From positions 1 through 29,057 of IMG/VR virus record IMGVR_UViG_3300020042_002006: a DNA stretch of 29,057 nucleotides; one strand, written 5' to 3'. Under the pieces are notes generated by a model that searched no databases, was not told the origin of the DNA, and saw only the letters and a program-made list of their open reading frames with translations. Positions 5,217 to 24,935 of this stretch are shown here, in pieces; position 1 is the first letter of the stretch; every line of letters starts with the position of its first letter. Made by a program: the position numbers and the translations under genes. The stretch comes from a virus. Its lineage: Duplodnaviria; Caudoviricetes.

Positions 5217-5218
5217 CT

Positions 5219-6309: not shown

Positions 6310-6310
6310 T

Positions 6311-6673: not shown

Positions 6674-6675
6674 TT

Positions 6676-7786: not shown

Positions 7787-8030
7787 AGAAACAACTGAAG
7801 ATAAGCCAGCACTTAGTAACTATTACCGAGACAATCTCAGGATTGATGCACTGCGTGATACCACCATTGCACTGCGTACAGATGTTGACTCCATCAAGGT
7901 TGACCTGACCAACTTCGTTGGTGCGTTACTGCAATCTGGTGTTGTTGAATTAGTTAAAGATGAAGAAGGCAATGTCATCTACAAGATCAACAAGGTTGTA
8001 TTGGTAGATGAGTCAGTACAACAAGACTAA
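7779..8030 (+). CDS. Hypothetical protein
   Basis: AAGGAGG RBS before ATG 7779; overlaps both neighbours. Confidence 0.7.
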   Translation: MSEETTEDKPALSNYYRDNLRIDALRDTTIALRTDVDSIKVDLTNFVGALLQSGVVELVKDEEGNVIYKINKVVLVDESVQQD

Positions 8031-8358
8031 AGGTTCTCAGTTTGAGACAGATGTAATGAAGTGGCTCCGCAAAGCTGGAGTTATAGCAGAGCGTCTGACT
8101 AAGGCTGGGGCAAAGGATGAGGGCGACATCGTAACTGTTATCGCGGGAGAAACTTACATCCTTGAACTCAAGAACAGGGCAACCCTTTCGCTGCCTGAGT
8201 TCTGGAGAGAAGCGCAAGTTGAGGCGCTTAACTATGCTAAGGCTCGTGGTATCGGGGAAGTACCACTGTCATATGTAATAGTTAAGCGTCGCAACGCTTC
8301 AATAGATCAGGCTTGGGTAATCCAAGACTTAGCACAATGGTTAAAGGAGAAACAGTAA
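8008..8358 (+). CDS. Holliday junction resolvase (Hjc-like PD-(D/E)XK)
   Basis: KGSQFE...GDI...ILELKN. Confidence 0.8.
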   Translation: MSQYNKTKGSQFETDVMKWLRKAGVIAERLTKAGAKDEGDIVTVIAGETYILELKNRATLSLPEFWREAQVEALNYAKARGIGEVPLSYVIVKRRNASIDQAWVIQDLAQWLKEKQ

Positions 8359-8639
8359 TGCCATACGCAGCTCAGTGGTATGCAAATGAAAGTCCCGCTT
8401 ATTCTTTTTATTGTGTATGCGGTCTAGCCATTACGGGTCAAAGTGAAAAAGGGTTACATACCCTAATAAGAAGACACAGGGAAAAAGGTATTTTCCACTT
8501 AGAACATACAGGAGAAATAGTTATGCCAGTACCAGGCGGAGAAATAACAACAACAGAGATACTAGTACCAGAAGTAGAAGAAGTGGTTGAAGATTCAACT
8601 ACAGAAGAAGCCGAAGATGATCTGCCAGAACTGTCTTAA
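8358..8639 (+). CDS. Hypothetical protein (with a probable second start at 8523)
   Basis: TAATG coupling and AAGGAG RBS; a second AGGAG-ATG at 8523 gives an acidic 38-aa product. Confidence 0.55.
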   Translation: MPYAAQWYANESPAYSFYCVCGLAITGQSEKGLHTLIRRHREKGIFHLEHTGEIVMPVPGGEITTTEILVPEVEEVVEDSTTEEAEDDLPELS

Positions 8640-8796
8640 AGGCGGAGAAGAGAACACACTTGTTCACTACAAGCGTGCAACTAATTGGCACGACAAGTGC
8701 GACTTTAAGGGGTGCGTATGCCAGCACAAGACTGGTCCAGGGTACGTAAGGCGAGCAGATACAAAGGTGCCGTTGATGCAAACTCAATCCCCATAG
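8617..8796 (+). CDS. Small Cys/His-rich (Zn-binding) protein
   Basis: MICQNC...HDKC...CVCQH. Confidence 0.6.
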   Translation: MICQNCLKGGEENTLVHYKRATNWHDKCDFKGCVCQHKTGPGYVRRADTKVPLMQTQSP

Positions 8797-9095
8797 GAGT
8801 TATTGTTTCCCACTATGGAGGTGAAGTACGTGAAGGCAAGAGTGCTTCGGTTCGTTGCTGTTTACATAGTGACAGTAGACGCTCAGCAGTTATCAACACT
8901 TATGACAATTTATATTTCTGCCATACCTGCGGTAAGGGTGGCAATGCAGCTAACCTAGTATGCATATTAGAGAACTTGGAGTTTAACGATGGCCTCAAAC
9001 GTGCAGTCGAAATTGCTACTGGAAGCGGCGCAACAATACGCACAGGCAATAAGTCCAGAAACTCTAGCCGTACTAGAAGGACGTGGGATCTCTGA
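8718..9095 (+). CDS. DNA primase N-terminal zinc-binding (CHC2) module
   Basis: CCLHSDSRRS...FCHTCGKGG; AAGGGG RBS. Confidence 0.8.
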   Translation: MPAQDWSRVRKASRYKGAVDANSIPIGVIVSHYGGEVREGKSASVRCCLHSDSRRSAVINTYDNLYFCHTCGKGGNAANLVCILENLEFNDGLKRAVEIATGSGATIRTGNKSRNSSRTRRTWDL

Positions 9096-9639
9096 GGAGA
9101 CAGCAGGACTGTTCCAATTAGGAACTATTACTAACCCCATCAATGGTCACGAGATGTATGAAGGGTGGCTATCTATCCCATACATCACCGCATCCGGTGG
9201 TTGTGTTGGCTTTAAGTTTAGACGATTAGATGATGCCAAGCCTAAGTATGGCAGTCCTACTGGGCAGAAGGCACATCTGTATAATGTATGTGACATCACT
9301 CTTGACTCACCACACATCGTTGTATGTGAGGGTGAGCTAGATGCAATAGTCACTAGCGCAGAGCTTGGTATCCCAGCAGTGGGTGTGCCAGGTGTTGCAG
9401 CGTGGAAGAACCACTTTCCAAAACTCTTTGTAGGTTATGAAACTATCTATGTTGTTGGTGACAATGACGTCAAAGAGGATGGGTCTAACCCTGGAGCTGA
9501 GTTTGCTAAGCGCGTGGCGAATGAGGTAATGAACTCACAGATTGTTACACTACCACCAGGTATGGACATCAATGATTATTACTTGGCTAATGGAATTGAT
9601 GCTACGAGAAAGTTACTGATAGGGGAGTCAAATGTATGA
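8989..9639 (+). CDS. DNA primase catalytic/TOPRIM module
   Basis: RGI, KFRR, PKY, VVCEGELDAI, GDND and DINDY motifs. Confidence 0.88.
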   Translation: MASNVQSKLLLEAAQQYAQAISPETLAVLEGRGISEETAGLFQLGTITNPINGHEMYEGWLSIPYITASGGCVGFKFRRLDDAKPKYGSPTGQKAHLYNVCDITLDSPHIVVCEGELDAIVTSAELGIPAVGVPGVAAWKNHFPKLFVGYETIYVVGDNDVKEDGSNPGAEFAKRVANEVMNSQIVTLPPGMDINDYYLANGIDATRKLLIGESNV

Positions 9640-10051
9640 CAATGACAAGGCAAGAGTGGGACACGATGCTACAGACTTTGCAGCATATGGGCTTTCAAAT
9701 CTTAGAGATCAATACGGAAACAGAGACAGTACTACTGCGCCCTATACCGATAAGATAAACGATGCTTTCATTGCAGATGTCTGGCGTATTATGGACCAAG
9801 CAGGCAACCTATTGGTGCGTAAGCATCACGACTACGGCCCAAAGAACATTGCTCACTCACCAGGTGGACCACTTAATGGTCTGCGTGTACGTATGTGGGA
9901 TAAGATAGCACGCATTAATAACCTATTAGACTCTGGCGTTGAGCCAAGCAATGAGTCCTTGCGTGATTCCTTCTTAGATTTATTAAACTATTCAGCTATT
10001 GCAATGATGGTCTTAGATGGCGTATGGCCTGAAGTGCAGGACAATGACTGA
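9632..10051 (+). CDS. DUF1599/Nmad1 nucleotide-modification-associated (MazG-like) protein
   Basis: RKHHDYG...RMWDKIARINNL...DSFLDLLNYS. Confidence 0.75.
   Translation: MYDNDKARVGHDATDFAAYGLSNLRDQYGNRDSTTAPYTDKINDAFIADVWRIMDQAGNLLVRKHHDYGPKNIAHSPGGPLNGLRVRMWDKIARINNLLDSGVEPSNESLRDSFLDLLNYSAIAMMVLDGVWPEVQDND
9636..9758 (+). CDS. Nested 40-aa ORF in the +1 frame of the DUF1599 gene
   Basis: ATGA overlap with the primase stop; MTMTRQEWDTMLQTLQHMGFQILEINTETETVLLRPIPIR. Confidence 0.45.
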   Translation: MTMTRQEWDTMLQTLQHMGFQILEINTETETVLLRPIPIR

Positions 10052-10505
10052 AGGCTTCTATAAAACTGACACGTTCAAGACATCTAACGATGATACGTGG
10101 ACTACACCTAAAGACTTCTTTGATAAGTTACACAAAGAGTTTAACTTTAGTTTGGATGCAGCAGCACTTGCTTCATCAACTCTGGTACCTGATAACTGGT
10201 ATGGTCCTGACCATCCAGATCACTTAAGGCGTGATGCTTTTACTAGAGACTGGGCTAAAGAAAGTTTTGGTTCTATCTGGTTGAATCCACCTTATGGTAG
10301 GACTATTAAAGATTGGGTACGTAAAGCTGACAGCGTTGCTAACGGGGGGGGGACAGTTGTGTGTTTAGTACCAGCACGTACTGATACTTCTTGGTGGCAC
10401 GAGCATTGCATCCATCACGAGGTTAGATTTATTAGGGGTAGATTAAAGTTTGGTAATCAAAAGAACTCAGCTCCATTTCCTAGTGCAATAGTGGTGATGC
10501 GATGA
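10044..10505 (+). CDS. Phage DNA N6-adenine methyltransferase (Dam, T1/HP1-type)
   Basis: WTTP..FF, FSLDAAA, WLNPPYG, LVPARTDTSWW and RGRLKFG motifs; start at ATG 10044. Confidence 0.9.
   Translation: MTEGFYKTDTFKTSNDDTWTTPKDFFDKLHKEFNFSLDAAALASSTLVPDNWYGPDHPDHLRRDAFTRDWAKESFGSIWLNPPYGRTIKDWVRKADSVANGGGTVVCLVPARTDTSWWHEHCIHHEVRFIRGRLKFGNQKNSAPFPSAIVVMR
10344..10352 (+). repeat. G9 homopolymer inside Dam
   Basis: AAC GGG GGG GGG ACA, in frame. Confidence 0.9.
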
Positions 10506-11134
10506 CTGAACTTCATCCAGTAATCTATGACCTCGTTCCTAGCGTTGCTAATGCTATTCATCGTAGGTATAACAAGCACGTTGAAAAGGATGACATCAAG
10601 CAAGAGCTAATGGCTTGGGCTATGACTAGATCAGCAGATCATACTGAAGATTTAATGGAGCCAATCGAAGAGCGACGCAGGCACAACGAGCAGCGCATAG
10701 CGTGGCAGATGAAGCGTGTAGCAGAACGCTATGCTCGCAAGGAGAAGGCATCCAAGTCTGGCTATCAGACTAATGATGAAGCCTACTACGAGTCAGCTAC
10801 CCTTGGTCAGTTGCTTCCCTTTGTTATTGCATCCGTCATTGATGGCACAGTATTAGAGCAAGCACAAGAGATGATTAGAGATGGACAACCCAAAGGCTCA
10901 TCATCTCCAGCAGAAGGTGGCAACCTACTTGCAAACCTTATAGACATCAAGAAAGGTTTTCTTAAACTAGATCAAGAAGACCAGGCTATCTTGCGTATGC
11001 GCCATCACGAGAGCTTTACCTTACAACAGATAGCACAGGTATTAGAGTGTGCTGTCTCTACTGCAGATCGTAGGTGTGCTCAGTCTTTGCGTAGGTTACA
11101 AGATAATCTAGGTGGGATTAGTCCCTGGCAATGA
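10502..11134 (+). CDS. Sigma-70-like factor (region 4 HTH)
   Basis: DDIKQEL (region 2-like); C-terminal L.....ILRMRH.ESFTLQQIAQVLEC..STA..R. Confidence 0.7.
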   Translation: MTELHPVIYDLVPSVANAIHRRYNKHVEKDDIKQELMAWAMTRSADHTEDLMEPIEERRRHNEQRIAWQMKRVAERYARKEKASKSGYQTNDEAYYESATLGQLLPFVIASVIDGTVLEQAQEMIRDGQPKGSSSPAEGGNLLANLIDIKKGFLKLDQEDQAILRMRHHESFTLQQIAQVLECAVSTADRRCAQSLRRLQDNLGGISPWQ

Positions 11135-11514
11135 ACGAAGAGTTACTGTTTGCTTTTTTGCGTGAGAACTTGTATCCAGATTTAGTAAAGTCTGAGGGCA
11201 TCTATGATGCCTATGACTGTATCTCTAGGCAAGCAGGTCATTACATAGAATTAAAGTGCAGGGCTACACACTATGACACCTTGCTGATTGAAGAGATGAA
11301 GTATCGCAAGCTCATCACCCAAGCAGCAGAGCGTGATCTAATCCCCTACTACATTAACTCTACCCCGCAGGGTGTCTTCTCCTTTGACCTTATGGATTTA
11401 CCGGAGCCTGTATGGTTTAATCATCAGATGCCAGCAAGCACAGAGTTTGATCGTGTTGATAAGGTTGACAAGTTAGTAGGTTATCTACCCATAGAGGAAG
11501 CGGTCCAGCTCTAA
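11131..11514 (+). CDS. PD-(D/E)XK-like nuclease
   Basis: YDC...YIELKCR. Confidence 0.65.
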   Translation: MNEELLFAFLRENLYPDLVKSEGIYDAYDCISRQAGHYIELKCRATHYDTLLIEEMKYRKLITQAAERDLIPYYINSTPQGVFSFDLMDLPEPVWFNHQMPASTEFDRVDKVDKLVGYLPIEEAVQL

Positions 11515-11687
11515 TGCAGTATGACTATCGTTGCCCTGATTGCAACAACGTATTAACTGTTGAACGTTCTATCCACGAGGAACCTCGTGAGCCATCTTGC
11601 TTTGATTGCCACGTAACTATGGTACGTAAGTGGGACTCACCTGGAGTCACCTTCAAAGGTAAAGGGTTCTATTCTACAGGTGGATAA
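11514..11687 (+). CDS. FmdB-family zinc-ribbon protein (57 aa, not in the ORF track)
   Basis: MQYDYRCPDC...CFDC...FKGKGFYSTGG*; TAATG coupling. Confidence 0.85.
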   Translation: MQYDYRCPDCNNVLTVERSIHEEPREPSCFDCHVTMVRKWDSPGVTFKGKGFYSTGG

Positions 11688-11690
11688 AGT

Positions 11691-11727
11691 AAAAGACCCA
11701 CCAGTTCCCGTTACTGATGGGTCTTTG
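11691..11727. terminator. Bidirectional terminator between the convergent operons
   Basis: AAAGACCCACCAGT-n7-ACTGATGGGTCTTT; the single mismatch is G-U on the minus strand, which is followed by a U-tract. Confidence 0.8.
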
Positions 11728-11745
11728 TTGTGCTAAGGAAAAGGG

Positions 11746-12168
11746 TTAGGAAACCTTAGCCACTTCTACTATATTCTGTACTATCCACTCTACCACAGGC
11801 ACAGCTACAGCATTACCCATCTGCTTATACCTGGTTGAGTCTGATTGTCCAGCAGTCCAATCATCAGGGAAACCCTGCAACCTTTCACACTCTACTGGAG
11901 TTAAGCGGCGCACACCGCTTTGATCTGAAAGCATTGACACGTTGTTTCCTCCCGTACCCATACGTGATGTAAGAGTATTCATAGTCTTGTCTTGTACTCG
12001 TGCTCCATCGTGGTAGTGAGGATGAAAGACAATGACTGTCGTTCGCACATCACCATTATCAAATGCGTTAAGCGTTGGCATTACTCCTCCTTCAATCCAA
12101 GTCTCGTAGTCATCCACATTCTGTGCTCGCCTACTCTTGGTGAACCACAAGGTTCTCACTTCCTCCAC
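11746..12168 (-). CDS. C5 cytosine methyltransferase, C-terminal part (variable region plus motifs IX-X)
   Basis: RRLTPVECERLQGFPDDW (IX) and RYKQMGNAVAVPVVEWI (X); start uncertain (GTG 12168, GTG 12159 or TTG 12150). Confidence 0.85.
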   Translation of the reverse strand: MEEVRTLWFTKSRRAQNVDDYETWIEGGVMPTLNAFDNGDVRTTVIVFHPHYHDGARVQDKTMNTLTSRMGTGGNNVSMLSDQSGVRRLTPVECERLQGFPDDWTAGQSDSTRYKQMGNAVAVPVVEWIVQNIVEVAKVS

Positions 12169-12943
12169 CTAGATCACCACCATTGGCACGCAAGGTGCCA
12201 ACTCCTTCTATGTATCCACCAAAAGATGATGAAGTAACAACCACATTATCTTCAGGTCTTTTGTAAGTAGTAGCTGTAAGTGTTGTTACTCCTGGTGAGT
12301 ACTTGGCGAAGCCTGTTTGACCAAAGCTTTCTTGAGTACTTCCGGTAGTTCCTTGCCCCGCTTGCTTGCTCGTCGAAGGATTCCTTCGCAAGCCCTCGGA
12401 CTTAAAGAGTATTTCTGCAACGCCTCCGCTAGTAGCACGTCTCCCAACGACGAAGACTCTACGCCTGCGCTGGGGTACTCCGAAGTGTTGAGCATCAAGC
12501 ACACGCCATCCGACAGAATACCCGATGTCTGCCATCGTTCCGAGGACGACTCCAAAATCTGCTCCTTTGTTACTGGATAACAAACCAGGGACGTTTTCGA
12601 TGATGAAGTATTCTGTTTGCGTTTCTTCCACAAGTCTTGCAATCTCCCAGAATAACCCGCTTCGTTCGCCAGCAAGACCAGCTCTTTTGCCAGCAACGCT
12701 GAGGTCTTGGCAGGGAAATCCTCCTGTAATAATTCCTGTGCTTGGTGTAAATCCTGCATTTATTAGATCCTCTCCCTTAACTGTAGTCACATCTGTAAAT
12801 TGGGTAGCGTCAGGAAAATGCTGCGCCAATACCTGATTACAGTTCTTATCTATCTCAACCGAGGCTACTACCTTTACTCCTTGTCGTTGCATAGCTAAGT
12901 CAAAGCCACCAACGCCTGCAAATAAACTAACACCGGTCAGCAT
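12131..12943 (-). CDS. C5 cytosine methyltransferase, N-terminal part (motifs I-VIII)
   Basis: SLFAGVGG (I), GGFPCQDLS (IV), ENVPG (VI), PQRRRRVF (VIII); ATG 12943 is TGATG-coupled. Confidence 0.92.
   Translation of the reverse strand: MLTGVSLFAGVGGFDLAMQRQGVKVVASVEIDKNCNQVLAQHFPDATQFTDVTTVKGEDLINAGFTPSTGIITGGFPCQDLSVAGKRAGLAGERSGLFWEIARLVEETQTEYFIIENVPGLLSSNKGADFGVVLGTMADIGYSVGWRVLDAQHFGVPQRRRRVFVVGRRATSGGVAEILFKSEGLRRNPSTSKQAGQGTTGSTQESFGQTGFAKYSPGVTTLTATTYKRPEDNVVVTSSSFGGYIEGVGTLRANGGDLGGGSENLVVHQE
12286..12759 (-). CDS. Alternative-frame nested protein resembling the M.EcoHK31I beta polypeptide
   Basis: GGGAGAGG RBS 9 nt before ATG; 157 aa; RWQTSG...NTSEYPS...SLGDVL...YSLSPRACEGILRRASKRGKELPEVL. 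Confidence 0.7.
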   Translation of the reverse strand: MQDLHQAQELLQEDFPAKTSALLAKELVLLANEAGYSGRLQDLWKKRKQNTSSSKTSLVCYPVTKEQILESSSERWQTSGILSDGVCLMLNTSEYPSAGVESSSLGDVLLAEALQKYSLSPRACEGILRRASKRGKELPEVLKKALVKQASPSTHQE

Positions 12944-13377
12944 CAGTACCACCCTCTTCTGTCGCTATGTTGGAGAGCGCGACACGCACTCCCTCCATAG
13001 CGGTGACTAAGGTATCGTAAGCCGTGAAGGATTTGAAGTTCAGGTTGTCCACTACGCTCTCTAAGGAGTTGAGCAATTCCAAAAGCCGAGCTTCTTGGTT
13101 TGCCCTCAGCGTCTCTTGGGCGAGCAAGGTGGTCGAAGCGGGATTCACGGGTCCATAAGGTGACAAGACATCTGATTTGGTCTTGATTGTAGCCGAGTGC
13201 TCGTGCGTAACTAACTGCAAGTGACTTGTTCTCACGCTTCTCCTCCATTGTTGCCTTCGTTCTCTCCTGCATTACTGGAGTATGCAAGATCGTTTGCTCC
13301 GTTGGCTCGTGTGTGTACGCCCACCCTAAGAACAGTAGTGCCATCAATACTAATCCACTTTTTGCCTTGTAACTCAT
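12943..13377 (-). CDS. Secreted/membrane-anchored lytic transglycosylase-like protein
   Basis: N-terminal hydrophobic segment; CLVTLWTRESRF...SSAFGIAQLL...GLRYLSHRYGGSAC.A...GWY; GGAG before ATG 13377. Confidence 0.8.
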   Translation of the reverse strand: MSYKAKSGLVLMALLFLGWAYTHEPTEQTILHTPVMQERTKATMEEKRENKSLAVSYARALGYNQDQIRCLVTLWTRESRFDHLARPRDAEGKPRSSAFGIAQLLRERSGQPELQILHGLRYLSHRYGGSACRALQHSDRRGWY

Positions 13378-13531
13378 CTTGTTTCTTCTCCATTTCGAGC
13401 AATTGCTTATAGGTATCAGGGTATAGATGAGCAAGGCGAGCCAAAGCTCTGTCTCTTGCCCTTCTGTAGTTTCTATCTCTTACCGCCTTGCGGCTGGCAG
13501 TTTCCATCCTTCTCTTGACCTCATCAGTCAT
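13232..13531 (-). CDS. Basic helical hypothetical protein overlapping the transglycosylase 5' end
   Basis: GGGAGG RBS; RNYRRARDRALARLA. Confidence 0.65.
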   Translation of the reverse strand: MTDEVKRRMETASRKAVRDRNYRRARDRALARLAHLYPDTYKQLLEMEKKQDELQGKKWISIDGTTVLRVGVHTRANGANDLAYSSNAGENEGNNGGEA

Positions 13532-13604
13532 TCAGCTTGTCCTCCCACACTATAAGCACGTAGGCTACCACCATTACTATCATTATCCCTAGTACCAGGC
13601 TCAT
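13524..13604 (-). CDS. 26-aa membrane microprotein
   Basis: MSLVLGIMIVMVVAYVLIVWEDKLND*; ATGA-coupled upstream and overlapping the next start. Confidence 0.6.
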   Translation of the reverse strand: MSLVLGIMIVMVVAYVLIVWEDKLND

Positions 13605-13906
13605 CTTCCTACCTTCCTTGCCTCTTGAATAATCTCGGTTATGTCTATGGTTTGCCCTACCAGGTGAGCATCTTCCTCATCACTATCCCACGCAGAGACC
13701 AGCACACGGCTGCCATTGGGTGCAAGGGTTAGCCATTGCATACATTGCTCAGCGTTAGCTCCGCCCCACGTATTAGAGCCATCAGGCTCGACCACTTCAT
13801 AGAATAGGATCAGCTCAGACTTAGGCGGGTGTATCGTGTAAATGTTGCTCGGTGGATCACCCAAGAATGGCTCTCCCCTACTGTCAAAGCGTAATACTCT
13901 ACTCAT
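13601..13906 (-). CDS. Hypothetical early protein
   Basis: GAGGAGG RBS before ATG 13906. Confidence 0.7.
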   Translation of the reverse strand: MSRVLRFDSRGEPFLGDPPSNIYTIHPPKSELILFYEVVEPDGSNTWGGANAEQCMQWLTLAPNGSRVLVSAWDSDEEDAHLVGQTIDITEIIQEARKVGR

Positions 13907-14057
13907 TCTCTTCCTCCTCGAACCCGAACAGTTGGGACAGTGCACTGTTGGCACGCTTGAGATTTTTAATAGCCTCTGCGATCTCCTCCTCTTTGAGATT
14001 CTTCTCAGCCTGGTTTATGCACAGATCAAACTTAGCCTCTAAGTATTCTTTATTCAT
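13899..14057 (-). CDS. Hypothetical helical protein (52 aa, not in the ORF track)
   Basis: AAGGAGG RBS; MNKEYLEAKFDLC...FEEEENE*. Confidence 0.7.
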   Translation of the reverse strand: MNKEYLEAKFDLCINQAEKNLKEEEIAEAIKNLKRANSALSQLFGFEEEENE

Positions 14058-14208
14058 TGTCTTCCTCCTTTGGTAGTACGCGACCCTTAAAGTCGCTGCT
14101 GATTATTTTGATTACATCCTCCCCCGTGGACAGTTTCTCCCAGTCCCACTCTTTTGGGTCGCCGTCATAGGTTTCTATCTCTAGTGTTACTAGGTATCTA
14201 TCTTTCAT
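14050..14208 (-). CDS. Hypothetical protein (52 aa)
   Basis: Purine-rich RBS before ATG 14208; MKDRYLVTLEIETYDGDP. Confidence 0.7.
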   Translation of the reverse strand: MKDRYLVTLEIETYDGDPKEWDWEKLSTGEDVIKIISSDFKGRVLPKEEDNE

Positions 14209-14242
14209 CCTCGTCCTCTCTCGCTCTCTCCCGCATCTAGCG

Positions 14243-14286
14243 GCAGACCACCAGGCACCGACCCGAACCGGTGCCCGATAGTCCGC
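14243..14286 (-). other. 19-bp intergenic RNA hairpin
   Basis: GCGGACUAUCGGGCACCGG-UUCGGG-UCGGUGCCUGGUGGUCUGC; all non-Watson-Crick pairs are G-U on the minus strand; no U-tract. Confidence 0.8.
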
Positions 14287-14288
14287 TT

Positions 14289-14459
14289 CTACAGCTGGAC
14301 ACACTCCGCCATTGATCCCCAGCACCAGCCGAGAAACTCAGCTTTGGGCGAGTCAATCCCAACCCACCAAAGAGAAGAGGACACCAGCACCAGCAACCAA
14401 AGCGCAAGAGTGGCAAGGACTCCCAGCACGAACCAACCTCGCGGGGTGATGTTCTTCAT
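14289..14459 (-). CDS. Small membrane protein
   Basis: MKNITPRGWFVLGVLATLALWLLVLV...; ATGA-coupled. Confidence 0.7.
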   Translation of the reverse strand: MKNITPRGWFVLGVLATLALWLLVLVSSSLWWVGIDSPKAEFLGWCWGSMAECVQL

Positions 14460-14521
14460 TTTCCACATCTTCCGTCGTGTCCTTTTGGTTTTCTGCATCC
14501 GTATCTATTACACATCAACAT
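14456..14521 (-). CDS. 21-aa Cys/His microprotein
   Basis: MLMCNRYGCRKPKGHDGRCGK*; TAATG overlap upstream and ATGA overlap downstream. Confidence 0.6.
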   Translation of the reverse strand: MLMCNRYGCRKPKGHDGRCGK

Positions 14522-14907
14522 TAGAGCCACGCCTGAGAAAGTGAATAGCCAGCGTCTACGGCGTCGGCTTGTCCTTCGTACTTGTCACGAAATAGAACAC
14601 GGGCGAGGCTGTAGACCACGTGAAAGCCCATATCCATCCCACAACCACCGACACGAATGGCGCGGGATCCGTTGACCTCTACGAGTGGGTAGTCAAGAAC
14701 TACTGAAGCGTAATAGGTTAGGTCTAGGATCCTGCCTTCTTTGGCGACCTTGAGGGACATCGTGCGACTCATTCCAGAAGGTGCGACACTTCTCAAAACT
14801 GTGTAGACGGTATCGCCTTCCTTTACGAAGAACTCCAAAAGTTGCTTTTTTGCATAGTTGTAGTCTTCCTGCTTTTGTTGCTTCTTTGTCATTGTTGCTG
14901 TTGTCAT
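14521..14907 (-). CDS. Conserved phage early protein (GGCGMDMGFH motif), function unknown
   Basis: AAAGGG RBS before ATG 14907; VYTVLRSV..SGMSR...VGGCGMDMGFH. Confidence 0.75.
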   Translation of the reverse strand: MTTATMTKKQQKQEDYNYAKKQLLEFFVKEGDTVYTVLRSVAPSGMSRTMSLKVAKEGRILDLTYYASVVLDYPLVEVNGSRAIRVGGCGMDMGFHVVYSLARVLFRDKYEGQADAVDAGYSLSQAWL

Positions 14908-14929
14908 CTTGCACCCTTTTCTAGTATCT

Positions 14930-14979
14930 GATCTCATCAGGTGACGAATTACGCCACGACCTCCGAAGAGGTTTCGATC
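14930..14979 (-). ncRNA. Type II hammerhead ribozyme
   Basis: GAUC-GAAA-CCUC(UUCG)GAGG-UC/GUGGCG(UAAUU)CGUCAC-CUGAUGA-GAUC: full catalytic core, three stems and a GUC cleavage triplet. Confidence 0.92.
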
Positions 14980-15405
14980 TTAAAGAGGCAACGCCTCAAG
15001 GTTTGCGGTTTTCATTGTTGTTTGAATTGCCTTTGCTTTTTGTTCTGGAGTTGTTTCGGATTCTGCAAAAGAACAATTTGCCCAGCCTTCGCACTCTGCA
15101 TCTTTGTAGAATGAAAAGCCCTCATCGTTTGCATAGATGTAGGACTCATCGCCTGTTTTGATGTAGACGCACATAGTAAAGCCCCCAGTCTGGTGAACAT
15201 CTGCAGGGATTCCAAGTGCGATCAAAGCCTCAGCAATTGCGGTTGTTCCTTGTGTTTCTGATGCTGAAGCCTCTTGGCAGGTGTAGCAATACCCTTCTCT
15301 CTTTTCTTCTCTTGTCGTGTTTCCTTCTGAGTCTTTGTATCGGCGCGTGATTTCTACAATGTGCGGATGTGAAACGAAGTCTTTGCAGGTTGTTGGAAGT
15401 GTCAT
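14980..15405 (-). CDS. Hypothetical early protein
   Basis: GGAGG RBS; ATGA-coupled; 141 aa. Confidence 0.75.
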   Translation of the reverse strand: MTLPTTCKDFVSHPHIVEITRRYKDSEGNTTREEKREGYCYTCQEASASETQGTTAIAEALIALGIPADVHQTGGFTMCVYIKTGDESYIYANDEGFSFYKDAECEGWANCSFAESETTPEQKAKAIQTTMKTANLEALPL

Positions 15406-15635
15406 TCTGAAACCTCCAAAGAAACTAGAACTTCACGAGTTGAAAACTCAACATCGTTTCCCTCTTCGTCTGCTGGTTCTTCTATCTGCACTTCAATAGC
15501 GAAAACAATTTGATCTAGTTGTTCTGCTGTGAGTTCTTGATCTGATTGAAATGAAATTGTGCCTTTGTATTGAAACATTTTTGTGTTTCCGATTGCACCA
15601 TCTTTAGTCATTGGTGAGCCGTATTTTCTATCCAT
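15402..15635 (-). CDS. Acidic hypothetical early protein (first gene of the leftward operon)
   Basis: AAAGGG RBS; 77 aa. Confidence 0.7.
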   Translation of the reverse strand: MDRKYGSPMTKDGAIGNTKMFQYKGTISFQSDQELTAEQLDQIVFAIEVQIEEPADEEGNDVEFSTREVLVSLEVSE

Positions 15636-15649
15636 TTTTCTACCCTTTC

Positions 15650-15686
15650 GCAGATTGTTCGGGATCTGCTAGGGCTAACGATAGCA
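15650..15686 (-). promoter_or_regulatory. Probable early promoter (extended -10) with a 5' hairpin
   Basis: TGCTATCGT (TGn-TANNNT) at 15686-15678, then GCAGAT-n8-ATCTGC and the RBS. Confidence 0.5.
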
Positions 15687-15739
15687 GAAAAAAGAGGGCA
15701 GGCTCCCCCATTTGGTGGGCATTTATTCCACGAGCTTTG

Positions 15740-15817
15740 GTAACGATTTGATAACGAAGTCAGGGGGCGATCTTGTTACTGACCAGTAAGTTACCAGGAT
15801 TGAAGGCTCGGTAACTT
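15740..15817. promoter_or_regulatory. Cluster of GTAAC/GTTAC direct and inverted repeats
   Basis: GTAAC-n6-ATAAC (15740-15755); TTACTG-AC-CAGTAA (15776-15789); AAGTTACC-n14-GGTAACTT (15788-15817). Confidence 0.55.
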
Positions 15818-15853
15818 GGGAGATTGCTGGGTCTTTCCCGAGCTGAAAGCAAA

Positions 15854-15916
15854 GGGCAAAGGGTTGGCGGTTGGTCGGTTGGTCAGGTGATCGGGTTGGG
15901 TTGCTGGTTGGTTGGG
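15854..15916 (+). repeat. G/T-rich degenerate GGTTGG repeats
   Basis: gggttggcggttggtcggttggtc...gggttgggttgctggttggttggg. Confidence 0.7.
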
Positions 15917-17436
15917 TAGTTAATGTTAATCTCTGGCACCACTGATTGCTGTGCAAATGTACCAATACGGTAGAAGTTATCTTCGCTGTCAACAGAGTCA
16001 ATGTTAATACCGCCATTGGCTGTATCAATACGAGCCTGCATCAGCTTGAAGATCTTAAGTTCTAGTGTGTTGTATCGGATGTAGCCAGTGCGTAGGTAGC
16101 CAGTTGGTACAACGCTAGTTGTAGATTCAGCCCAGGTATTATTACCATTAGTAAATGCTGCTCTGTCCGAGTTACCAAAGAAGGCAACCTGACTTGCTGT
16201 GGTTGTAGTACCAGTTGCAATCAAGTCCCAAGCCCAAGGGAAGAACAAAGAGTTTGGGATTACAATGGTTGATAGATCAACACGGACTAGCCCTGCTTCT
16301 CCATCTACCTTTGATGTAAGGTAGGCAAAGTTATCTCTGAAAGCAATAGCATTACACGGTGCATCTTTGAATAGAAGCGGTCCATACTGCACATCTCCTG
16401 TGGCATCTGCGATGCCCACTCTAAATCCTAGGCTTGTTGCAAGAACTGCATATACACCAAGGTAGACATCAAAGTCATTGATGCGCTCACCCTCTGGCAT
16501 ATCAATAATAACTGTAGGCACACTCAGTGTTGGGAAGCCTAGTGAGTTGGGAACTGCTGCATCTAGGTTAATCTTAAAGACAGAAGATGATGTACCGTTT
16601 GGATCATAACCTGATACGTAGATTGCTTGTGGTCCCTCTGCGATAGATGACCAAACCCAGTTAGCGTTAGGGTGTGTATACAAAGCTGTAGGCAGGGCTG
16701 CAGAACCAGTAGCGTTAGCGTTGAGTTCATATAACACATTACCAATTGCTAGTAGCAGACGCTGCTTAACAAAGCGAATGGTTGCTCTAGTTACTCCTGG
16801 AGTATTGTAAATCTCAGAGTCAGCAGGTGTTGCACCAACTGAACCTTTGTGTACCTTAGTGCCGTTAATAAAATAATAGTTTGAGCCATCAGTTGTAAGG
16901 CTATAGATGGTTGAGGCTGTGCCTGCTTGGGTAATAGTTGTTGCTGCACCAGCAGATGTAATCTTCTTGAGCGCTGTGCCATCTGTGACATAGATACAGT
17001 CATTAGTTCCATCATTGACACCGATTAACTGAGCAGGTGCAGCGCCAGCATAGAAGCTGGCTGTGTCATTAAGTAGGGTTGCCTGTCCTCTAGTCCAGAC
17101 ATCTACACCCTTTGACTCTGTGTACTGGAAGCGTAGCGACTCTTCTTGGATAGGTTCAAAGAACTTGATGCCAGCGCCAAGGTGGAAGGATGATTGGCTA
17201 CGTAGCCACCAACCGGTCAGTGTCTGCTCACCAGGTTCACGTGACTGGTCAATCTGTTGCTTACGATACTGCGCTGTTACGCGACGATATGGTGAATCGT
17301 CAGAGTTCAACAGAAAGAACGGTAAGCCACCGATAGCTACATCGTATGCCTCGCCAGTTGCTGAGTAAGTAGTTGATCCTGCAGGGTTAGAAAGGGTATA
17401 TGGAATGCCCTCGGTAATATCGTCGCCGTATGGCAC
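15883..17436 (-). pseudogene. Second copy of the large tail protein, 3'-truncated at about 15,914
   Basis: Homologous to 397..2604 up to VPEININYP, then 9 unrelated residues; lacks about 128 C-terminal aa. Confidence 0.8.
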
Positions 17437-17446
17437 TTAGTTCCCC

Positions 17447-17821
17447 TTAGTTTGTTGGGCCTGTAATTTCAATCCATTGTTGGTTAGGTTCAAACCACGC
17501 ATAAGGCTTGCCATCTTCTGGCATAGCTACAGGTGCTTGCCAGTTAAGGTCAGCATCTAGTGTCCAAGATGGGTATGGCTGAGGTGCAAGGAAAGCATCC
17601 TTGTCAGCATCGTATGTGTAACCGATACCTGCATAGCGCTTACGGATGTTACCGTTGTAAGAAGTCTGAACCCACTTGGTATCGTTGCCGAATAAAGATC
17701 GGCAGAAGATAACTCCCTGTGTTTCATTCTCTACGCCTTCAAAGATTAACTCTTCGTTAGCCACAACAATTACTTGTGTGACTACATTGTTATCATCTAG
17801 TTGTGCAAAGTGTGCCATCAT
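17447..17821 (-). CDS. Conserved partner of glycine-rich fibre proteins (MAHFA...WVQTSYN...RYAGIG)
   Basis: AAGGAG RBS; adjacent to the Gly-rich genes. Confidence 0.75.
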   Translation of the reverse strand: MMAHFAQLDDNNVVTQVIVVANEELIFEGVENETQGVIFCRSLFGNDTKWVQTSYNGNIRKRYAGIGYTYDADKDAFLAPQPYPSWTLDADLNWQAPVAMPEDGKPYAWFEPNQQWIEITGPTN

Positions 17822-17827
17822 ATCTCC

Positions 17828-18718
17828 TTAAAAAGTAATTGTTCCTGATCCTGTGTATTGATAAATATAGTAGCTACCCGATGTTGTAAAAGTAGGAGAA
17901 CCAGTTGTTGCTGTTGCTGCTTGCAATGCTCGTATAATCACAATTCCAGATCCACCTGCGGCTGGTGTGTTAATTGTGTTGGCACAACCGCCTCCACCAC
18001 CACCAGTGTTTGCTGTTCCAGGATTAGGCTGTAATGGGGTTACGGCATCATTTGTACCTCTACCACCGCCACCTGTTCCTGGCGTTGAATAAGTGCCATC
18101 ATTTGCAGTAGAACCACCACCTCCACCGCCACCACGTGTAACGCTAGATCCTGTAATTGTGGATGCTATTCCGTTACCACCAGTACCACCATTGTTGCCA
18201 CTTGAAGCAGCATTACCACCAGCAGCACCAGCACCACCACCGCCACCGCCACCGTAGTTTGCACTTCCAGTTCCAGATCCTCCTGCATAACCTTGGTTAG
18301 CAGTACCTGCTCCACCAGCATAGGTAGGCACGGGTGTATCACCCATACCTCCACCACCAGAACCGCCAACAGCACCAGGGAAGTTATCATCGTAACCACC
18401 GCGACCGCCACCAGTAGAGGTGATTGTAGAGAAAACAGAGTTGGAACCTGACGAGTCTGTTCCTCCGCCAGCACCAACTGTAACTGTGTAAGAAGTTGCA
18501 AGTGTCAGCGTTAAAGATGATTCAGCAGATGCGCCGCCTCCAGATGTACCAACGGAAGTTCTATAGCCTCCTGCGCCACCACCACCACCGCGTTGTCTTC
18601 CGCCTGAACCGCCACCAGCGATTACAAGAAAGTCAACAGAGATCGTTGGGTTGTAGAAAGCATTGCCAACAAGCAAGCTACCTGAGCGAGTTTTATTCTT
18701 TACACTTTTGTTAGCCAT
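17828..18718 (-). CDS. Glycine-rich virion protein (putative receptor-binding)
   Basis: Start reassigned to ATG 18718 (TAATG); LVIAGGG...GGGGAGG.R...NTGGGGGG...GGSGIVIIR. Confidence 0.8.
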   Translation of the reverse strand: MANKSVKNKTRSGSLLVGNAFYNPTISVDFLVIAGGGSGGRQRGGGGGAGGYRTSVGTSGGGASAESSLTLTLATSYTVTVGAGGGTDSSGSNSVFSTITSTGGGRGGYDDNFPGAVGGSGGGGMGDTPVPTYAGGAGTANQGYAGGSGTGSANYGGGGGGGAGAAGGNAASSGNNGGTGGNGIASTITGSSVTRGGGGGGGSTANDGTYSTPGTGGGGRGTNDAVTPLQPNPGTANTGGGGGGCANTINTPAAGGSGIVIIRALQAATATTGSPTFTTSGSYYIYQYTGSGTITF

Positions 18719-19596
18719 TAGAAAGTTATGCTCCCGCTTCCAGTCCACTGATAAATTCTGAATCCACCTGCTGTGGTAATTGTTGGTGATCCTGTTGTTG
18801 CTGCAGCAGCTGAGTAAGCATCTGAGTAACGAATAATTACAATGCCTGAACCGCCATTACCACCTGCTATTGAATTGCCGTTCCAAGAACCTCCGCCACC
18901 ACCGCCAGTATTTGTTGTTCCTGATGTTCCACCACCACTTGCAGAACCTGCACCACCGCCGCCAGAACCACCAGTTGAAGCAGTTCCACCATTCTCAGCA
19001 CCGCCTCCACCTCCGCCTGCATAAGTGGTTGATGTTCCACTTATTGAAGAAGTTGAACCTGCACCACCATTACCACCTCTGCTGCTTGTTCCATTACCAC
19101 CAGTCGCGCTTGCACCGCCACCAGCACCGCCACCAGCAAAACCTGAACCCGATGCAATGCCGCCGTTGTTTCCTTCAGAGGGCGAATAACCTCCTTGGTT
19201 TCCTGTTCCAGCATTTGCTGCTTGACCAGAACCACCACCAGAACCACCTGGACCACCTTCGATTTCACCTGAAGCGGCTCCGCCTTTACCGCCGCGACCA
19301 CCACCAGTTGATGTTATCGAACCAAAAACTGAATTAGAGCCTTTAAGTCCAGGCATATCAGTTACACCAGCACCGCCAGCGCCAACAGTTACTGTGATCG
19401 CCGATCCAGCACTGACTGATAAACCTGTTGCAGTGCGATAACCACCGCCACCGCCACCGCCACCACGGTTGTTACCACCTCCACCGCCACCTGCTACTAC
19501 AAGGTATTCGACCGTTGGTGGTACTGGATTGTAATAAGCATTACCAACCAAGAGGCTTCTACTGTACGTCTTATTCTTTACGCTAAAAACAGCCAT
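18718..19596 (-). CDS. Glycine-rich virion protein (paralogue of 17828..18718)
   Basis: VEYLVVAGGGGGG...GGSGIVIIRY...WTGSGSITF; AAGGAG RBS. Confidence 0.8.
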   Translation of the reverse strand: MAVFSVKNKTYSRSLLVGNAYYNPVPPTVEYLVVAGGGGGGNNRGGGGGGGGYRTATGLSVSAGSAITVTVGAGGAGVTDMPGLKGSNSVFGSITSTGGGRGGKGGAASGEIEGGPGGSGGGSGQAANAGTGNQGGYSPSEGNNGGIASGSGFAGGGAGGGASATGGNGTSSRGGNGGAGSTSSISGTSTTYAGGGGGGAENGGTASTGGSGGGGAGSASGGGTSGTTNTGGGGGGSWNGNSIAGGNGGSGIVIIRYSDAYSAAAATTGSPTITTAGGFRIYQWTGSGSITF

Positions 19597-19621
19597 TAGT
19601 TACTCCTTGATTGATGGTTAA

Positions 19622-19846
19622 TTACTTTGTAAGTGCTGCGATTTCCTCGGCTGTTAGGCCAAGGGCTGCGAGCTTTGCTTGTGCATTAGCTTTTGCTTCA
19701 GCAACTGCTGTTGCTTCTGCCTCTGCTTCGTGCTGTGCTGCTGCAGCCGCTGTTGCTGCTGCTTCATTAGCTGCGATTTCATCGGCTGTCAAAGGACGTT
19801 CGATGACCTCGCCTGTTTCGCAGTTGATTTCGATTGCTGTTGTCAT
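19622..19846 (-). CDS. Small acidic/Ala-rich tail-associated protein
   Basis: Homologue of 141..371. Confidence 0.75.
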   Translation of the reverse strand: MTTAIEINCETGEVIERPLTADEIAANEAAATAAAAAQHEAEAEATAVAEAKANAQAKLAALGLTAEEIAALTK

Positions 19847-19855
19847 TGTTGCTCC

Positions 19856-20368
19856 TTATGATTTCTTGATGCCGTATAGATAGAAAGATGAACCTGAGAC
19901 GAAATTGAAACCATAACCACCGAAAGACAGGCTGCTGATTGCAGTCGTTGAAGATAAAAGGTTAGCAATCGCTAAAACATAAGCGGTCGTAGAGTTATCC
20001 TCAGTCACTTGGAAATAAGATGCTGGCTTGTTGGCAGCGGCTAAGTAGTTAGGTATGTATAGCTCGCCGCTTGAAAATGTATTGGATGTGCTAGTGGCAG
20101 CGTTGATTGTGTTTTGTTCCCAACTTGCCACACCTGATTGGGTTGCAGAGCTAGCAGCTGAACCATTACCACGTAAACGGATACCTGAATAAACAGATCC
20201 GCTCACATTTGTAGTAATTTGAATTGTGCTATCTGTAACCGCCCTATCTAATCTTGCACTAAAACGCACTACCAAATCCGTGAAAGTAGCAGGAATAGCC
20301 GAGAATGTAACGGATGCAGCAGTAGTGCTAAGGACATTAGATGAGATGAGTGTGTAGGTACTAGGCAA
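19856..20368 (-). CDS. 'YGIK'-family virion protein
   Basis: TTG 20368 gives MPSTYTLIS, matching the paralogue MPTTYEPIA; contains [13 protein letters not shown]. Confidence 0.75.
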
Positions 20369-20933
20369 CTGACTCACCCACTAACTTGTCTGGTGCATAC
20401 TGCTTGAGAATCTCTATAGCGTGTGCCACTTTGTCCTCTACTCTCTGTCCAGCAGGTTGCCCCTTGGACCATAGTTCTAGGTTTTCAATACGGTTATCTG
20501 AACGGTTACCGTTCTTATGGTGCACGTTTTCATATGGTTGTAGATCTCTACCTAAGTGTTCAGCCATAATTAAACGATGCTCCAATATGTGACCGCTTGT
20601 ATTTGAATTGGGATGCTCTGGGTTATATATTTCTACATAACCATTTTGGTTTACTCTTGCTTTACTGCTGCGTAGTTTTCCATCTGCTTTATTAGGATCG
20701 CCATACAAGGAGTTCCTACGGTAGTGCATCTGGCACATACCCTGAGCTTGATGTGGTTTATCGCAACCTTCTATGGTGCAATGAGTGTGCTTAAGATTAT
20801 TGCCGTGTGGTGCATTGCCTAGTGGATCACCCCACTTCTTCCACCTTACGTGGTGGGTAGGGCAATACATCTTGTATCTTTTGACTCTGTGACAACCTTC
20901 AACCTGACAAGGATAGTTATTAGAATATGGCAT
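20361..20933 (-). CDS. Free-standing HNH homing endonuclease
   Basis: Two C.(V/I)EGC...C..H Zn fingers; [14 protein letters not shown]...[21 protein letters not shown]. Confidence 0.9.
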
Positions 20934-20946
20934 AGTTAATCATACC

Positions 20947-21465
20947 TTATGCTTTGAGAATCCCATACAGAGTCGCGGTTGTGCCAGCAGCAAGTTGATT
21001 TGTGCTATTAGTTATAGTTAAAGATGTTATCGCAGATGTTGAGCGCCACAATCCAACTGATCTAAAGACCCAACCAGTTGAGTTGTTATCTATGTTTTGG
21101 TTGCTTAAAGCAGTTTTGAATGTAGAACCAGCATAAGAAAAAATATCAATCGCAGTTAATCCAAATACTCCAGAACCTGCACCGCCACCTGCAACAGTCA
21201 CAATTCCTAAATATGCCTGAGCGGTGAAACTACTTGATGAAACCGAAGATCCAGTTCCAAAGATTCTTGTCCAAGAATAATCAGATGCACTAGATCCATT
21301 AAAGGTTAAATTTATATTAGTTCCAGGGTCATTGCTTCCACTGTTTTCTCTTCCAACTATTACTAATCTAAGATCGGTATATGTTGCAGGAATACTAGAA
21401 AGCGTAATAGATGATGCTGCACTACCTAAAGTAGTGGTAGCGATTGGCTCGTATGTTGTTGGCAT
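20947..21465 (-). CDS. 'YGIK'-family virion protein
   Basis: SSIPATYTDLRL...GLWRSTSAITS...TLYGILKA. Confidence 0.75.
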   Translation of the reverse strand: MPTTYEPIATTTLGSAASSITLSSIPATYTDLRLVIVGRENSGSNDPGTNINLTFNGSSASDYSWTRIFGTGSSVSSSSFTAQAYLGIVTVAGGGAGSGVFGLTAIDIFSYAGSTFKTALSNQNIDNNSTGWVFRSVGLWRSTSAITSLTITNSTNQLAAGTTATLYGILKA

Positions 21466-22050
21466 TTACGCTCCCTTGATTCCGTATAGTGAGAAAACTG
21501 ATCCAGTAGCCCAGTTTGCGCCACCATTTTGAGTAACTGTAATAGAAGTTATCGCACTTGTTTGCATCCACAAACCAGAATGAAGCTGAATGATACCGCC
21601 GCCATTGCGATCAGTTCCTAGCATCATTCTTGTAGTTTTGTTCTTTGTTGTCGATGCGTAGTCGTGAACATCGAAAATTGCTGCTCCAAACACATCAGCA
21701 TAAAACCCGCCAGCCATTCCAGTTACCGACTCGATAAGTGTTTGACTTGCTGAACCTGATGCGCTTGCAGATGCCCCATCGCCTTGTAAACGATGGTAAG
21801 CATAATTGCTTGCAGTATCACCGTTAAATCTAAACTGTAAAGAAACTAGACCGTTAGAGTCGGTTGTTTTACCTAAGATTCTCAACTGTAATGATGAGTA
21901 AGTAGCAGGGATGCTGGAAAATGTTACAGTTCCTGATGACCCTGTACCTGTAGCAGTAGCAATGGACTCAAATGCAGTCGGTTGAAAGAAGGCATTGCCT
22001 GCAAGTAGGCTGTCACCAATAGCGCCAGTCTTGACGCTACTGATAGTCAT
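21466..22050 (-). CDS. 'YGIK'-family virion protein with an N-terminal anchor motif
   Basis: VTFSSIPATYSSLQLR...GLWMQTSAITS...SLYGIKGA. Confidence 0.75.
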   Translation of the reverse strand: MTISSVKTGAIGDSLLAGNAFFQPTAFESIATATGTGSSGTVTFSSIPATYSSLQLRILGKTTDSNGLVSLQFRFNGDTASNYAYHRLQGDGASASASGSASQTLIESVTGMAGGFYADVFGAAIFDVHDYASTTKNKTTRMMLGTDRNGGGIIQLHSGLWMQTSAITSITVTQNGGANWATGSVFSLYGIKGA

Positions 22051-22379
22051 TAAGAAACCTCGCTGCCGTATGCCTGAAATACTAGGTTAGCAGTTGAAGC
22101 ATATACTGACAGCACATCTGTTGTATTCATAGTTACACCAACTGTGATGATCGTTGTATCTGATGCACCGACTGTGATGTCATAGCCTAGGTAGTGAGCG
22201 TTAGTAATTGCCGCTCCTGCTGGGCGTACAGCGATACGAAATGTAGCAGCTGTTGCTGTTAGGTTTGCAATCGAGATAGATGAGATTACTGCTTGTGTTG
22301 ATGCTGGTACTGTGTATAGCGTTGTGAGGGTTGTAGCACTTGGGTTTGACTGACCAAGCACTTTGTAAGTTGTTGGCAT
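22050..22379 (-). CDS. Virion protein (beta-sandwich-like)
   Basis: AAGGAG RBS; MPTTYKVLGQS.P.ATT.TTLYTVP. Confidence 0.75.
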   Translation of the reverse strand: MPTTYKVLGQSNPSATTLTTLYTVPASTQAVISSISIANLTATAATFRIAVRPAGAAITNAHYLGYDITVGASDTTIITVGVTMNTTDVLSVYASTANLVFQAYGSEVS

Positions 22380-22408
22380 TTATTTCTCCTTATTAGTTGT
22401 TTGGTTAG

Positions 22409-22948
22409 TTATCCGCCCATAAGCATCAGTGAGTCAGAGACTGAAGCGCCTCCGCCTGTACTATCTGCCCATTTGACGCCTAGTGTTTGTGTTGAATCTG
22501 CTGTCAGTACTTGTCCGTTAGTTCCAACTGCGAGGTTATCTACTACACCACTTGCACTGGCAACGAGTAAGTCTGCCTTGGCAGTTACTACTGATTCAGG
22601 TATTGCTGCATCTGCTGTTGCAACTCCTGTTGTATAAAAGGTTAAGTCAGAAGATGTCAGTACGTGCTTGACTGTTGCACCTGCAGTATGTGAGATAGCA
22701 GAGGTTCCTGCTTGTCCTCTAACAATTGTTAGTGTGTCAGTAGCAACTCCAGTAACAAAGACAATCTCTTCGTTCTGTGTGTCAACATCAAGGGCAACTG
22801 TAAACTGGTCTACGTTACCAGCAGCGAGAGTTACACCTCCCATAAGGGCAGAACCTGTACCAGATGCAACTGTGATAGTCGTTGCACTGTTAGAGATTGT
22901 CGATAGGAGCGTTGTCTCAACGCTGATCGACGAATACTTACGAGTCAT
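22409..22948 (-). CDS. Tail-fibre attachment-like virion protein
   Basis: EEIV.VT...LTIVRG..GT.A..H.AGA.V.H; KADLLVAS...L.VGTNGQVLTADS repeat. Confidence 0.7.
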   Translation of the reverse strand: MTRKYSSISVETTLLSTISNSATTITVASGTGSALMGGVTLAAGNVDQFTVALDVDTQNEEIVFVTGVATDTLTIVRGQAGTSAISHTAGATVKHVLTSSDLTFYTTGVATADAAIPESVVTAKADLLVASASGVVDNLAVGTNGQVLTADSTQTLGVKWADSTGGGASVSDSLMLMGG

Positions 22949-22961
22949 TGGCTTTCCTTAC

Positions 22962-24926: not shown

Positions 24927-24935
24927 ACGAGAAGT

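Follow-up and report, generated by a model that had tools for sequence, protein, structure and literature searches.

Hammerheads of type II, with stems I and III closed and stem II open, have been known from sites between phage genes since 2011 (Perreault et al. 2011, PMC3088659). According to the available parts of that paper, copies flanking prophage genes are active, and a role in trimming transcripts to the length of an operon or a gene was proposed for them; polycistronic RNA is cut by prophage hammerheads in vitro and, in the case of one triple, in E. coli too. The same source describes HHphage of the haloviruses HF1 and HF2, an early-region phage hammerhead immediately ahead of a start codon; close to its cut, the 5' end of a transcript has been mapped. 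In sTRSV-type hammerheads, a U of loop I and an A of loop II form a Hoogsteen pair (PMC2553840 and PMC9217987, in the parts available, the latter citing O'Rourke 2015). In bacteria, glmS cleaves itself ahead of a gene and yields a 5'-OH message; the available part of this source (PMC6765202) treats ribozyme function in bacteria and phages as unresolved and reports that different ribozyme classes share such sites. The portions of PMC5737381 and PMC13725137 at hand add nothing closer. A literature search that covered subscription papers and bioRxiv supplements thinly found no description of a hairpin masking the hammerhead core, of hammerheads adjoining stop codons, or of a tRNA-like element of the kind described below in phages.

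The window analyzed in this study is the whole 29,057-nt stretch of viral DNA. Judged by core, stems, and topology, it carries a genuine hammerhead (Table 1), yet this locus lies below the membership threshold of the Rfam type II family, RF02276. It shares with the published type II ribozymes, as far as the available text of PMC3088659 describes them, the topology (stem II open, the other two stems closed), the canonical core, a sense-oriented position between phage genes, and frequent arrays. Its family differs from RF02276 in lacking a pseudoknot of loop I with the 3' tail and in having a fixed 4-bp stem II, a 17-nt stem-loop I, and a near-invariant A before stem II; most copies are sub-threshold, and about 30% of all copies among the matches listed have a covarying anti-core hairpin. 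The U beside residue 1.6, the A equivalent to the last loop II position, the 6-bp stem I, and the 4-bp stem II recall the sTRSV type (PMC2553840, available part), but the window form is permuted, its loop II is open, the A comes from the flank (a stop codon), and it is carried by a DNA phage, not by a satellite RNA. HHphage has a variant core and heads an operon of an archaeal virus, whereas the window form is canonical and lies inside an operon. Unlike glmS, which has another fold, depends on a metabolite, and leads to decay, it has no evident ligand site. As a ribozyme it is ordinary; the anti-core hairpin and the swappable slot that it occupies are the moderately interesting part.

Table 1. 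Features of the hammerhead locus and its surroundings (window positions unless a locus is named)
Feature	Position	Strand	Remark
Compact type II hammerhead	14930..14979	minus	canonical core; stem II open (4 bp), stem III capped by UUCG, stem I of 6 bp closed by a 5-nt loop
Stem II	14979-14976 with 14933-14930	minus	4 bp, open
GAAA core segment	14975-14972	minus	
Stem III	14971-14960	minus	UUCG loop
U16.1-C17	14959-14958	minus	
Predicted scissile bond, after C17 (14958)	14957..14958	minus	from the hammerhead consensus
Stem I	14957-14941	minus	6 bp, one of them G-U
U1.7, first base of loop I	14951	minus	candidate Hoogsteen partner of A14980
CUGAUGA core segment	14940-14934	minus	
A directly 5' of stem II	14980	minus	last base of the upstream TAA; likely equivalent of the loop II A
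Alternative 5-bp hairpin	14928..14940	minus	core CUGAU (14940-14936) with 14932-14928; RNAfold; excludes stem II
Upstream gene, 141 aa	14980..15405	minus	relatives at 48-94% in 11 viral loci
Downstream gene, 128 aa from ATG 14907	14521..14907	minus	PHROG 12365, function unassigned
Shine-Dalgarno-like purine run	14914..14921	minus	6 nt before ATG 14907; similar runs in relatives
Gene opening the putative operon, 77 aa	15402..15635	minus	overlaps the next start; zero family match
Extended -10-like box (15686-15678), then 5' hairpin (15669-15650)	15650..15686	minus	8 leaders aligned
Terminator-like hairpin	11692..11726	minus	14 pairs; minus-strand block meets plus-strand genes
tRNA-like element in related loci	L012:2906-2951, L013, L017-L020, L022-L025, L089; about 50 among L340-L459		
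Promoter-like inverted repeats in related loci	L026-L028, L043, L047, L051, L057, L059, L066-L069		

The first-pass annotation had placed a self-cleaving type II hammerhead in sense orientation within a phage early operon, and every element it named is present at its coordinates on the minus strand. The motif begins at the base after the upstream TAA, and the next ATG lies 22 nt past its end, as claimed. Sequence, covariation, and the precedent in the available part of PMC3088659 back both the type II assignment and the predicted cut, which would leave a hairpin-capped downstream mRNA; the predicted products are an upstream piece with a 2',3'-cyclic phosphate and a downstream piece with a 5'-OH. 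The class is characterized by CUGANGA, GAAA, and UH segments surrounding a three-helix junction, together with the pairs G10.1-C11.1 and A15.1-U16.1, all of which are present, and the closed stems I and III with an open stem II give the type II permutation. A loose core pattern matched once in the window against 0.06 matches expected, and a descriptor covering three permutations found positions 14979-14930 as its single site. Among 300 dinucleotide shuffles, none matched with equally long stems (6/4/4 bp) and one gave any looser match. The hammerhead was also the sole strong window match of our own covariance model R1 (79 bits, E 4.8e-20), which was partly built from the same sequence. Alone, the 50-mer folds as drawn in RNAfold (MFE -14.9 kcal/mol), with a z score of only -0.95. 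The AUG within the core, in frame with the downstream gene, was considered as a start codon and rejected; the spacing shifts in close relatives, some of which have no AUG.

Conservation was examined in 91 loci gathered through the two flanking genes (the best 80 of 424 for the downstream gene and 11 for the upstream gene, some on the same contig). The descriptor gave 36 matches in these loci, 35 of type II and one of type I, every one in sense. The proposed survey of relatives bore out the placement: all 11 closest relatives keep a hammerhead in the slot although the upstream gene changes. Twenty-four of the 26 distinct type II copies were aligned, omitting one long form and one other. The core is unchanged across them, and two-sided changes occur in 10 of 15 pairs, touching all three helices; the 100% pairing of the aligned copies is circular, since the descriptor demanded the stems. 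The covariation score was 0.66 compared with 0.17 in shuffles (0/500 as high) and 0.08-0.13 in slid controls. The upstream slots of L004 and L086 hold hammerhead variants with one additional U between the core and stem II.

Pattern scans extended this compact form to at least 124 viral stretches and at least 125 genome stretches, the genome matches listed being spread over many phyla and including cultured isolates. Among the matches listed, stem II has 4 bp in 172 of 181 distinct copies and stem-loop I has 17 nt in 167 of 181, values that are partly set by the pattern. Stem III has a median stability of -7.9 kcal/mol and mostly UUCG or GNRA loops, far beyond catalytic need. Arrays of three or four compact hammerheads with one gene between them were seen in L093, L094, L101-L103, L110, L166, L479-L480, and L539, among them loci of cultured Phycicoccus jejuensis and Caballeronia LZ033; the stem II strands of array members are often compatible, which could permit circularization of excised units. 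In L071, genes downstream of the homolog are flanked by two ribozymes (3454-3509, 3899-3952), a twister of type P5 (Rfam, 51 bits) and a hammerhead of type I.

Rfam, suggested earlier as a check with its hammerhead II models, does not recover the locus: no hammerhead match was returned for the whole window at E<=1 or for 151 bases at E<=10, so that the RF02276 gathering threshold of 37 bits is not reached. The closest complete relative likewise has no RF02276 match. Only 2 of 36 compact relatives in 20 loci exceeded the threshold (38.3 and 38.6 bits), and in a separate scan of 20 loci no compact copy did, one long form alone passing. The pseudoknot between loop I and the 3' tail is a majority, not a universal, feature of the published type II consensus, as given in the available part of PMC3088659. 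For a run of at least 4 bp, the window offers 3 bp at best; among the matches listed, 31 of 181 copies have one compared with 28.6 for shuffled partners (312/1000 shuffles equal or higher). Pairing of loop I with the 5' flank is unconvincing as well (38/181 versus 34.0, among the matches listed). A blastn search of the motif against GenBank phages gave zero matches. Model R1 found no copy in five cultured phages bearing a homolog of the downstream gene or in two cultured Planktophila phages, and a single copy in each of two among five related viral records. Six short motifs had no match in 11 supplementary text files of PMC3088659; within Dataset S1 of that paper, compact copies may already be present, for example masked by gapped alignments. 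Compact copies are frequent both in viral contigs and in the genomes of bacteria from many phyla, yet Rfam misses most of them.

The functional unit is a little larger than drawn, including A14980 and positions 14929-14928. The base before stem II is A in 180 of 181 distinct copies (window and viral loci) and in 106 of 109 genome copies, both among the matches listed, and no search pattern specified it. U1.7 is a U in 25 of the 26 copies found only through neighboring genes. The two bases fit a Hoogsteen pair, and by analogy with the sTRSV type A14980:U14951 is likely an A-U Hoogsteen tertiary contact linking stem I to stem II; both are near-invariant, and covariation therefore cannot prove the contact.

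The ribozyme occupies a slot whose content varies. Homology with seven relatives begins exactly at A14980 and with an eighth at 14981, while the genes upstream differ. Simple patterns were used to sort what precedes the 128-aa gene in 68 distinct regions (the best 80 of 424 loci, 12 duplicates dropped). These regions hold a hammerhead (15), a tRNA-like element (9), a promoter-bearing long hairpin (14), direct coupling of the genes (12), or other contents (18). Hammerhead, tRNA-like element, and promoter hairpin could each create a new 5' end. A 7-bp acceptor-like stem, a D-like hairpin, and a T arm make up the tRNA-like element, which has no anticodon arm; all three tested T-arm pairs covary, the acceptor sequence being dictated by the pattern in most rows. 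The element starts 5-18 nt past stop codons and is followed by a hairpin and a ribosome-binding site. No Rfam family matched it at threshold, and ARAGORN found no tRNA in the window, L012, L018, or L594. The acceptor-like stem, short D-like hairpin, T arm, and missing anticodon arm recall mascRNA/menRNA (RF01684), which among Rfam families matches the sense strand of L012 best; at 17.4 bits (E 0.2), short of the gathering score of 42.5, this marks a resemblance only; mascRNA/menRNA is vertebrate, whereas the slot element comes from phage. The tRNA-like element is a candidate substrate of RNase P/Z, with cleavage by RNase P presumed. This stand-in for the slot also occurs in a cultured phage with a cultured host: three copies lie between early genes of Planktophila phage E7 (L594, OX376640, minus strand, near 2208, 1794, and 1434). 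The compact hammerhead is absent from phage E7, and the same tRNA-like pattern has no match in its sister phage F5. The long inverted repeats upstream of the homolog carry -35-like and -10-like hexamers 17-18 nt apart, and are candidates for a promoter with an operator or cruciform, or for an RNase III site.

The flanking genes gave nothing usable on function in Pfam, PHROG, or Atlas; the upstream gene had zero Pfam or PHROG match and Atlas scores of only 0.76-0.77. For the downstream gene, 424 stretches were confirmed in IMG/VR, of which the best 80 were kept, and homologs occur in Gordonia, Caulobacter, and other cultured phages. The -10-like box and 5' hairpin of the leader are shared by relatives, with a compensatory change in the hairpin among the eight aligned leaders. 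These features suggest transcription through the motif from a start that is likely near 15670, and the transcript likely ends at the terminator-like hairpin, although the total hairpin count of that scan was no higher than in shuffles. A sigma-70 scan of 11500-16100 gave one site compared with 5.2 expected, and it lies elsewhere than the leader. The designation "early operon" would follow from small genes without assigned function standing behind a conserved promoter-like leader.

In its natural context, the core has a competitor. RNAfold favors a hairpin in which the core pairs with bases ending at 14928. The predicted active and trapped folds in the window are about 1 kcal/mol apart (-16.4 vs -17.5, tertiary terms omitted). 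For transcripts ending at 14930-14929, the stem II probability is 0.29-0.72, and only there does the active fold lead; in longer transcripts, the competing hairpin has a probability of 0.65-0.96. In full context, the stem II probability falls to 0.002-0.05 in a folding model without tertiary contacts, and in silico removal of the complement restores it to 0.97. Of 277 compact copies among the matches listed, 82 have a UCAG complement no more than 10 nt from the core, compared with 2 and 5 in downstream stretches and 3 in an upstream stretch, and 20 of 25 members of the set gathered by neighboring genes have the hairpin. Of the 74 copies with a stem II ending in UC, 50 have AG as the two following bases, compared with 28 of the other 203 (among the matches listed). 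The variable core base N7 covaries with its hairpin partner: inside stem II the counts are 20:8 versus 5:15 among the matches listed, and outside stem II there are 10 U-A and 20 C-G pairs and zero A/G cross-combinations, besides a single C-U mismatch and a single G-U. When the copies are clustered to 16 groups, 7 groups show U-A and 6 show C-G outside stem II. Template-switch correction of a quasi-palindrome could yield part of this covariation without selection. The loop size of the hairpin varies, which points to an RNA rather than a DNA-binding site. A mutually exclusive inactive fold is predicted, and it is both enriched and covarying; by the same modeling, the anti-core hairpin would slow the cut or lock the cut product.

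A comparable arrangement was found in type I phage hammerheads, in which the tail pairs with the 3' strand of the open stem I in 29 of 93 copies compared with 12.5 in shuffles (0/1000). In the type I copies of L216-L339, this re-pairing of the 3' tail gives the cut product a 5' hairpin. Both the type I and the compact hairpins lie wholly within the 3' product, and refolding of the product thus fits at least as well as control of the cut by ribosomes. The core-hiding hairpin is a two-base element able to separate a "cut and cap" from a "ribosome-gated" interpretation.

The reading favored here, with a rough probability of 0.55, is that the compact hammerhead would cut the leftward transcript without protein and largely independently of translation, leaving both pieces hairpin-ended. 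The cut would be constitutive, perhaps slow, and located 22 nt past the upstream stop. The upstream message, of about 0.7 kb and two genes, would finish in stem III with a 3' cyclic phosphate; the downstream one, of up to about 3.3 kb, would begin with a 5'-OH on a base-paired G. Refolding of the downstream piece into the anti-core hairpin would promote product release, block re-ligation, and produce a double-hairpin cap about 20 nt before the start codon, and the hairpin would also slow cleavage to some degree. Type II is the sole hammerhead topology that leaves a terminal hairpin on both products, and the putative primary 5' end likewise opens with a conserved hairpin. RNase E/J and 3' exonucleases are impeded when an RNA bears a 5'-OH and terminal hairpins, so the two messages may be stabilized. 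Because the competing hairpin dominates once the transcript passes 14929, cleavage would depend on tertiary and Mg2+ stabilization, which lie outside the folding model. At least 12 of the 68 relatives (from the best 80 of 424 loci) express the gene without such an element, indicating that the cut is dispensable. Two further points count against this mechanism: the anti-core hairpin is present in only 82 of the 277 copies listed, and in the glmS precedent (PMC6765202, available part) cleavage is followed by decay.

A doubtful alternative, although the best placed of those considered, is a kinetic switch gated by translation. A ribosome terminating at the adjacent stop of the upstream gene would cover stem II's 5' strand along with the tertiary A, the 3' half would collapse into the anti-core hairpin with a delay of the cut, and cleavage would report the translation load of that gene. 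The first-pass annotation had proposed such coupling because stem II abuts the stop codon. The adjacency is real: among the matches listed, 140 of the 171 viral copies for which an ORF was called (10 had none) and 61 of the 98 such genome copies (11 had none) have a stop between -1 and +3 nt from stem II, compared with a background of 124/3064, or 200/3058 after an A (4-6.5%). The competing, covarying hairpin, nearly isoenergetic with the active fold, would provide a physical basis for a switch, and blocking up to 5 nt past the stop in silico gave a trap probability of 0.90-0.94. The switch itself fared less well. Blocking 9-12 nt gave other folds, and the trap is favored even without a ribosome. 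Stop adjacency occurs in 64 of 77 copies with the hairpin and in 134 of 184 without it (p=0.083, among the matches listed), no clear enrichment, and the viral or genome set alone shows no difference. Type I phage hammerheads also adjoin stops, within 3 nt in 33 of 63 copies with a call (30 of 93 had none). By contrast, tRNA-like elements never do so (0/56 with a call; median 8 nt, range 5-18; 58 elements were selected for this count, a few false matches among them), and each slot element seems packed to its own minimum distance from the stop. Since type I copies adjoin stops, the A of the stop is likely structural, and tRNA-like spacing has its own minimum, compaction explains the adjacency equally well. 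A terminating ribosome stays for about 1 second, which would modulate cleavage rather than switch it. The same low odds attach to the wider claim that the locus is a natural ribosome-sensing ribozyme and one of several swappable junction modules punctuating shuffled early genes. If gating is true, this is a natural translation-sensing ribozyme; if false, the locus still illustrates the modular build of phage early operons.

It is unlikely, somewhat more so than ribosome gating, that the cut hands the downstream message over to host RNase J in the manner of glmS (PMC6765202, available part), lowering or time-limiting the early genes with the hairpin as a timer. The near-isoenergetic trap could tune such a rate, but the 3' product opens with a paired base and two hairpins, and a promoter-like element in the same slot of other phages would raise downstream output. 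Tandem arrays with one ribozyme per gene also fit better with the making of units.

Ranked below that is the improbable case in which ribozyme, ribosome-binding site, and gene form a mobile cassette with a recombination handle, cleavage occurring with little effect on fitness. The start of homology at or one base before A14980 in eight relatives with differing upstream genes, and the common ribozyme-gene-ribozyme arrays, agree with such a cassette. A handle, however, needs conserved sequence, yet the stems diverge with compensation while the catalytic bases and the A/U contact stay fixed, which indicates selection on RNA function. Finally, it is very improbable that the hairpin traps this copy so that it is effectively inactive in vivo, as the low stem II probability in full context might suggest, because 20 of the 25 clade members retain the hairpin alongside a perfect core and the folding model leaves out tertiary contacts.

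The cut-and-cap reading concerns a locus that probably belongs to a freshwater actinobacterial phage. A WhiB gene, helicase matches mostly to actinophages, a GC content of 45%, and genes common to two cultured Planktophila phages (those of PMC10202952, in the part available) point to a freshwater actinophage and, by extension, to its host. Positions 385-15917 of the window are collinear with a complete relative, whereas 15913-29057, with a structural module, are inverted with a tail gene repeated, so the contig is most likely a chimera joined at 15913-15917; the ribozyme locus is within the collinear part and unaffected. At the join, the leader of the early region meets the second tail gene (15883-17436), which is truncated and inverted, and in parts 80-85% identical to 397-2604; one contig of run X1 departs from the window at 15924. 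Near this junction, a conserved 290-bp non-coding leader (15633-15927, minus strand) has CAAC-rich repeats and an inverted repeat near 15820-15785, and may contain a genome end or origin. Further along the minus strand, a C5 DNA methylase is split over two overlapping frames, 12952-12131 and 12168-11746, with a Pfam match on the first, the sole frame tested.
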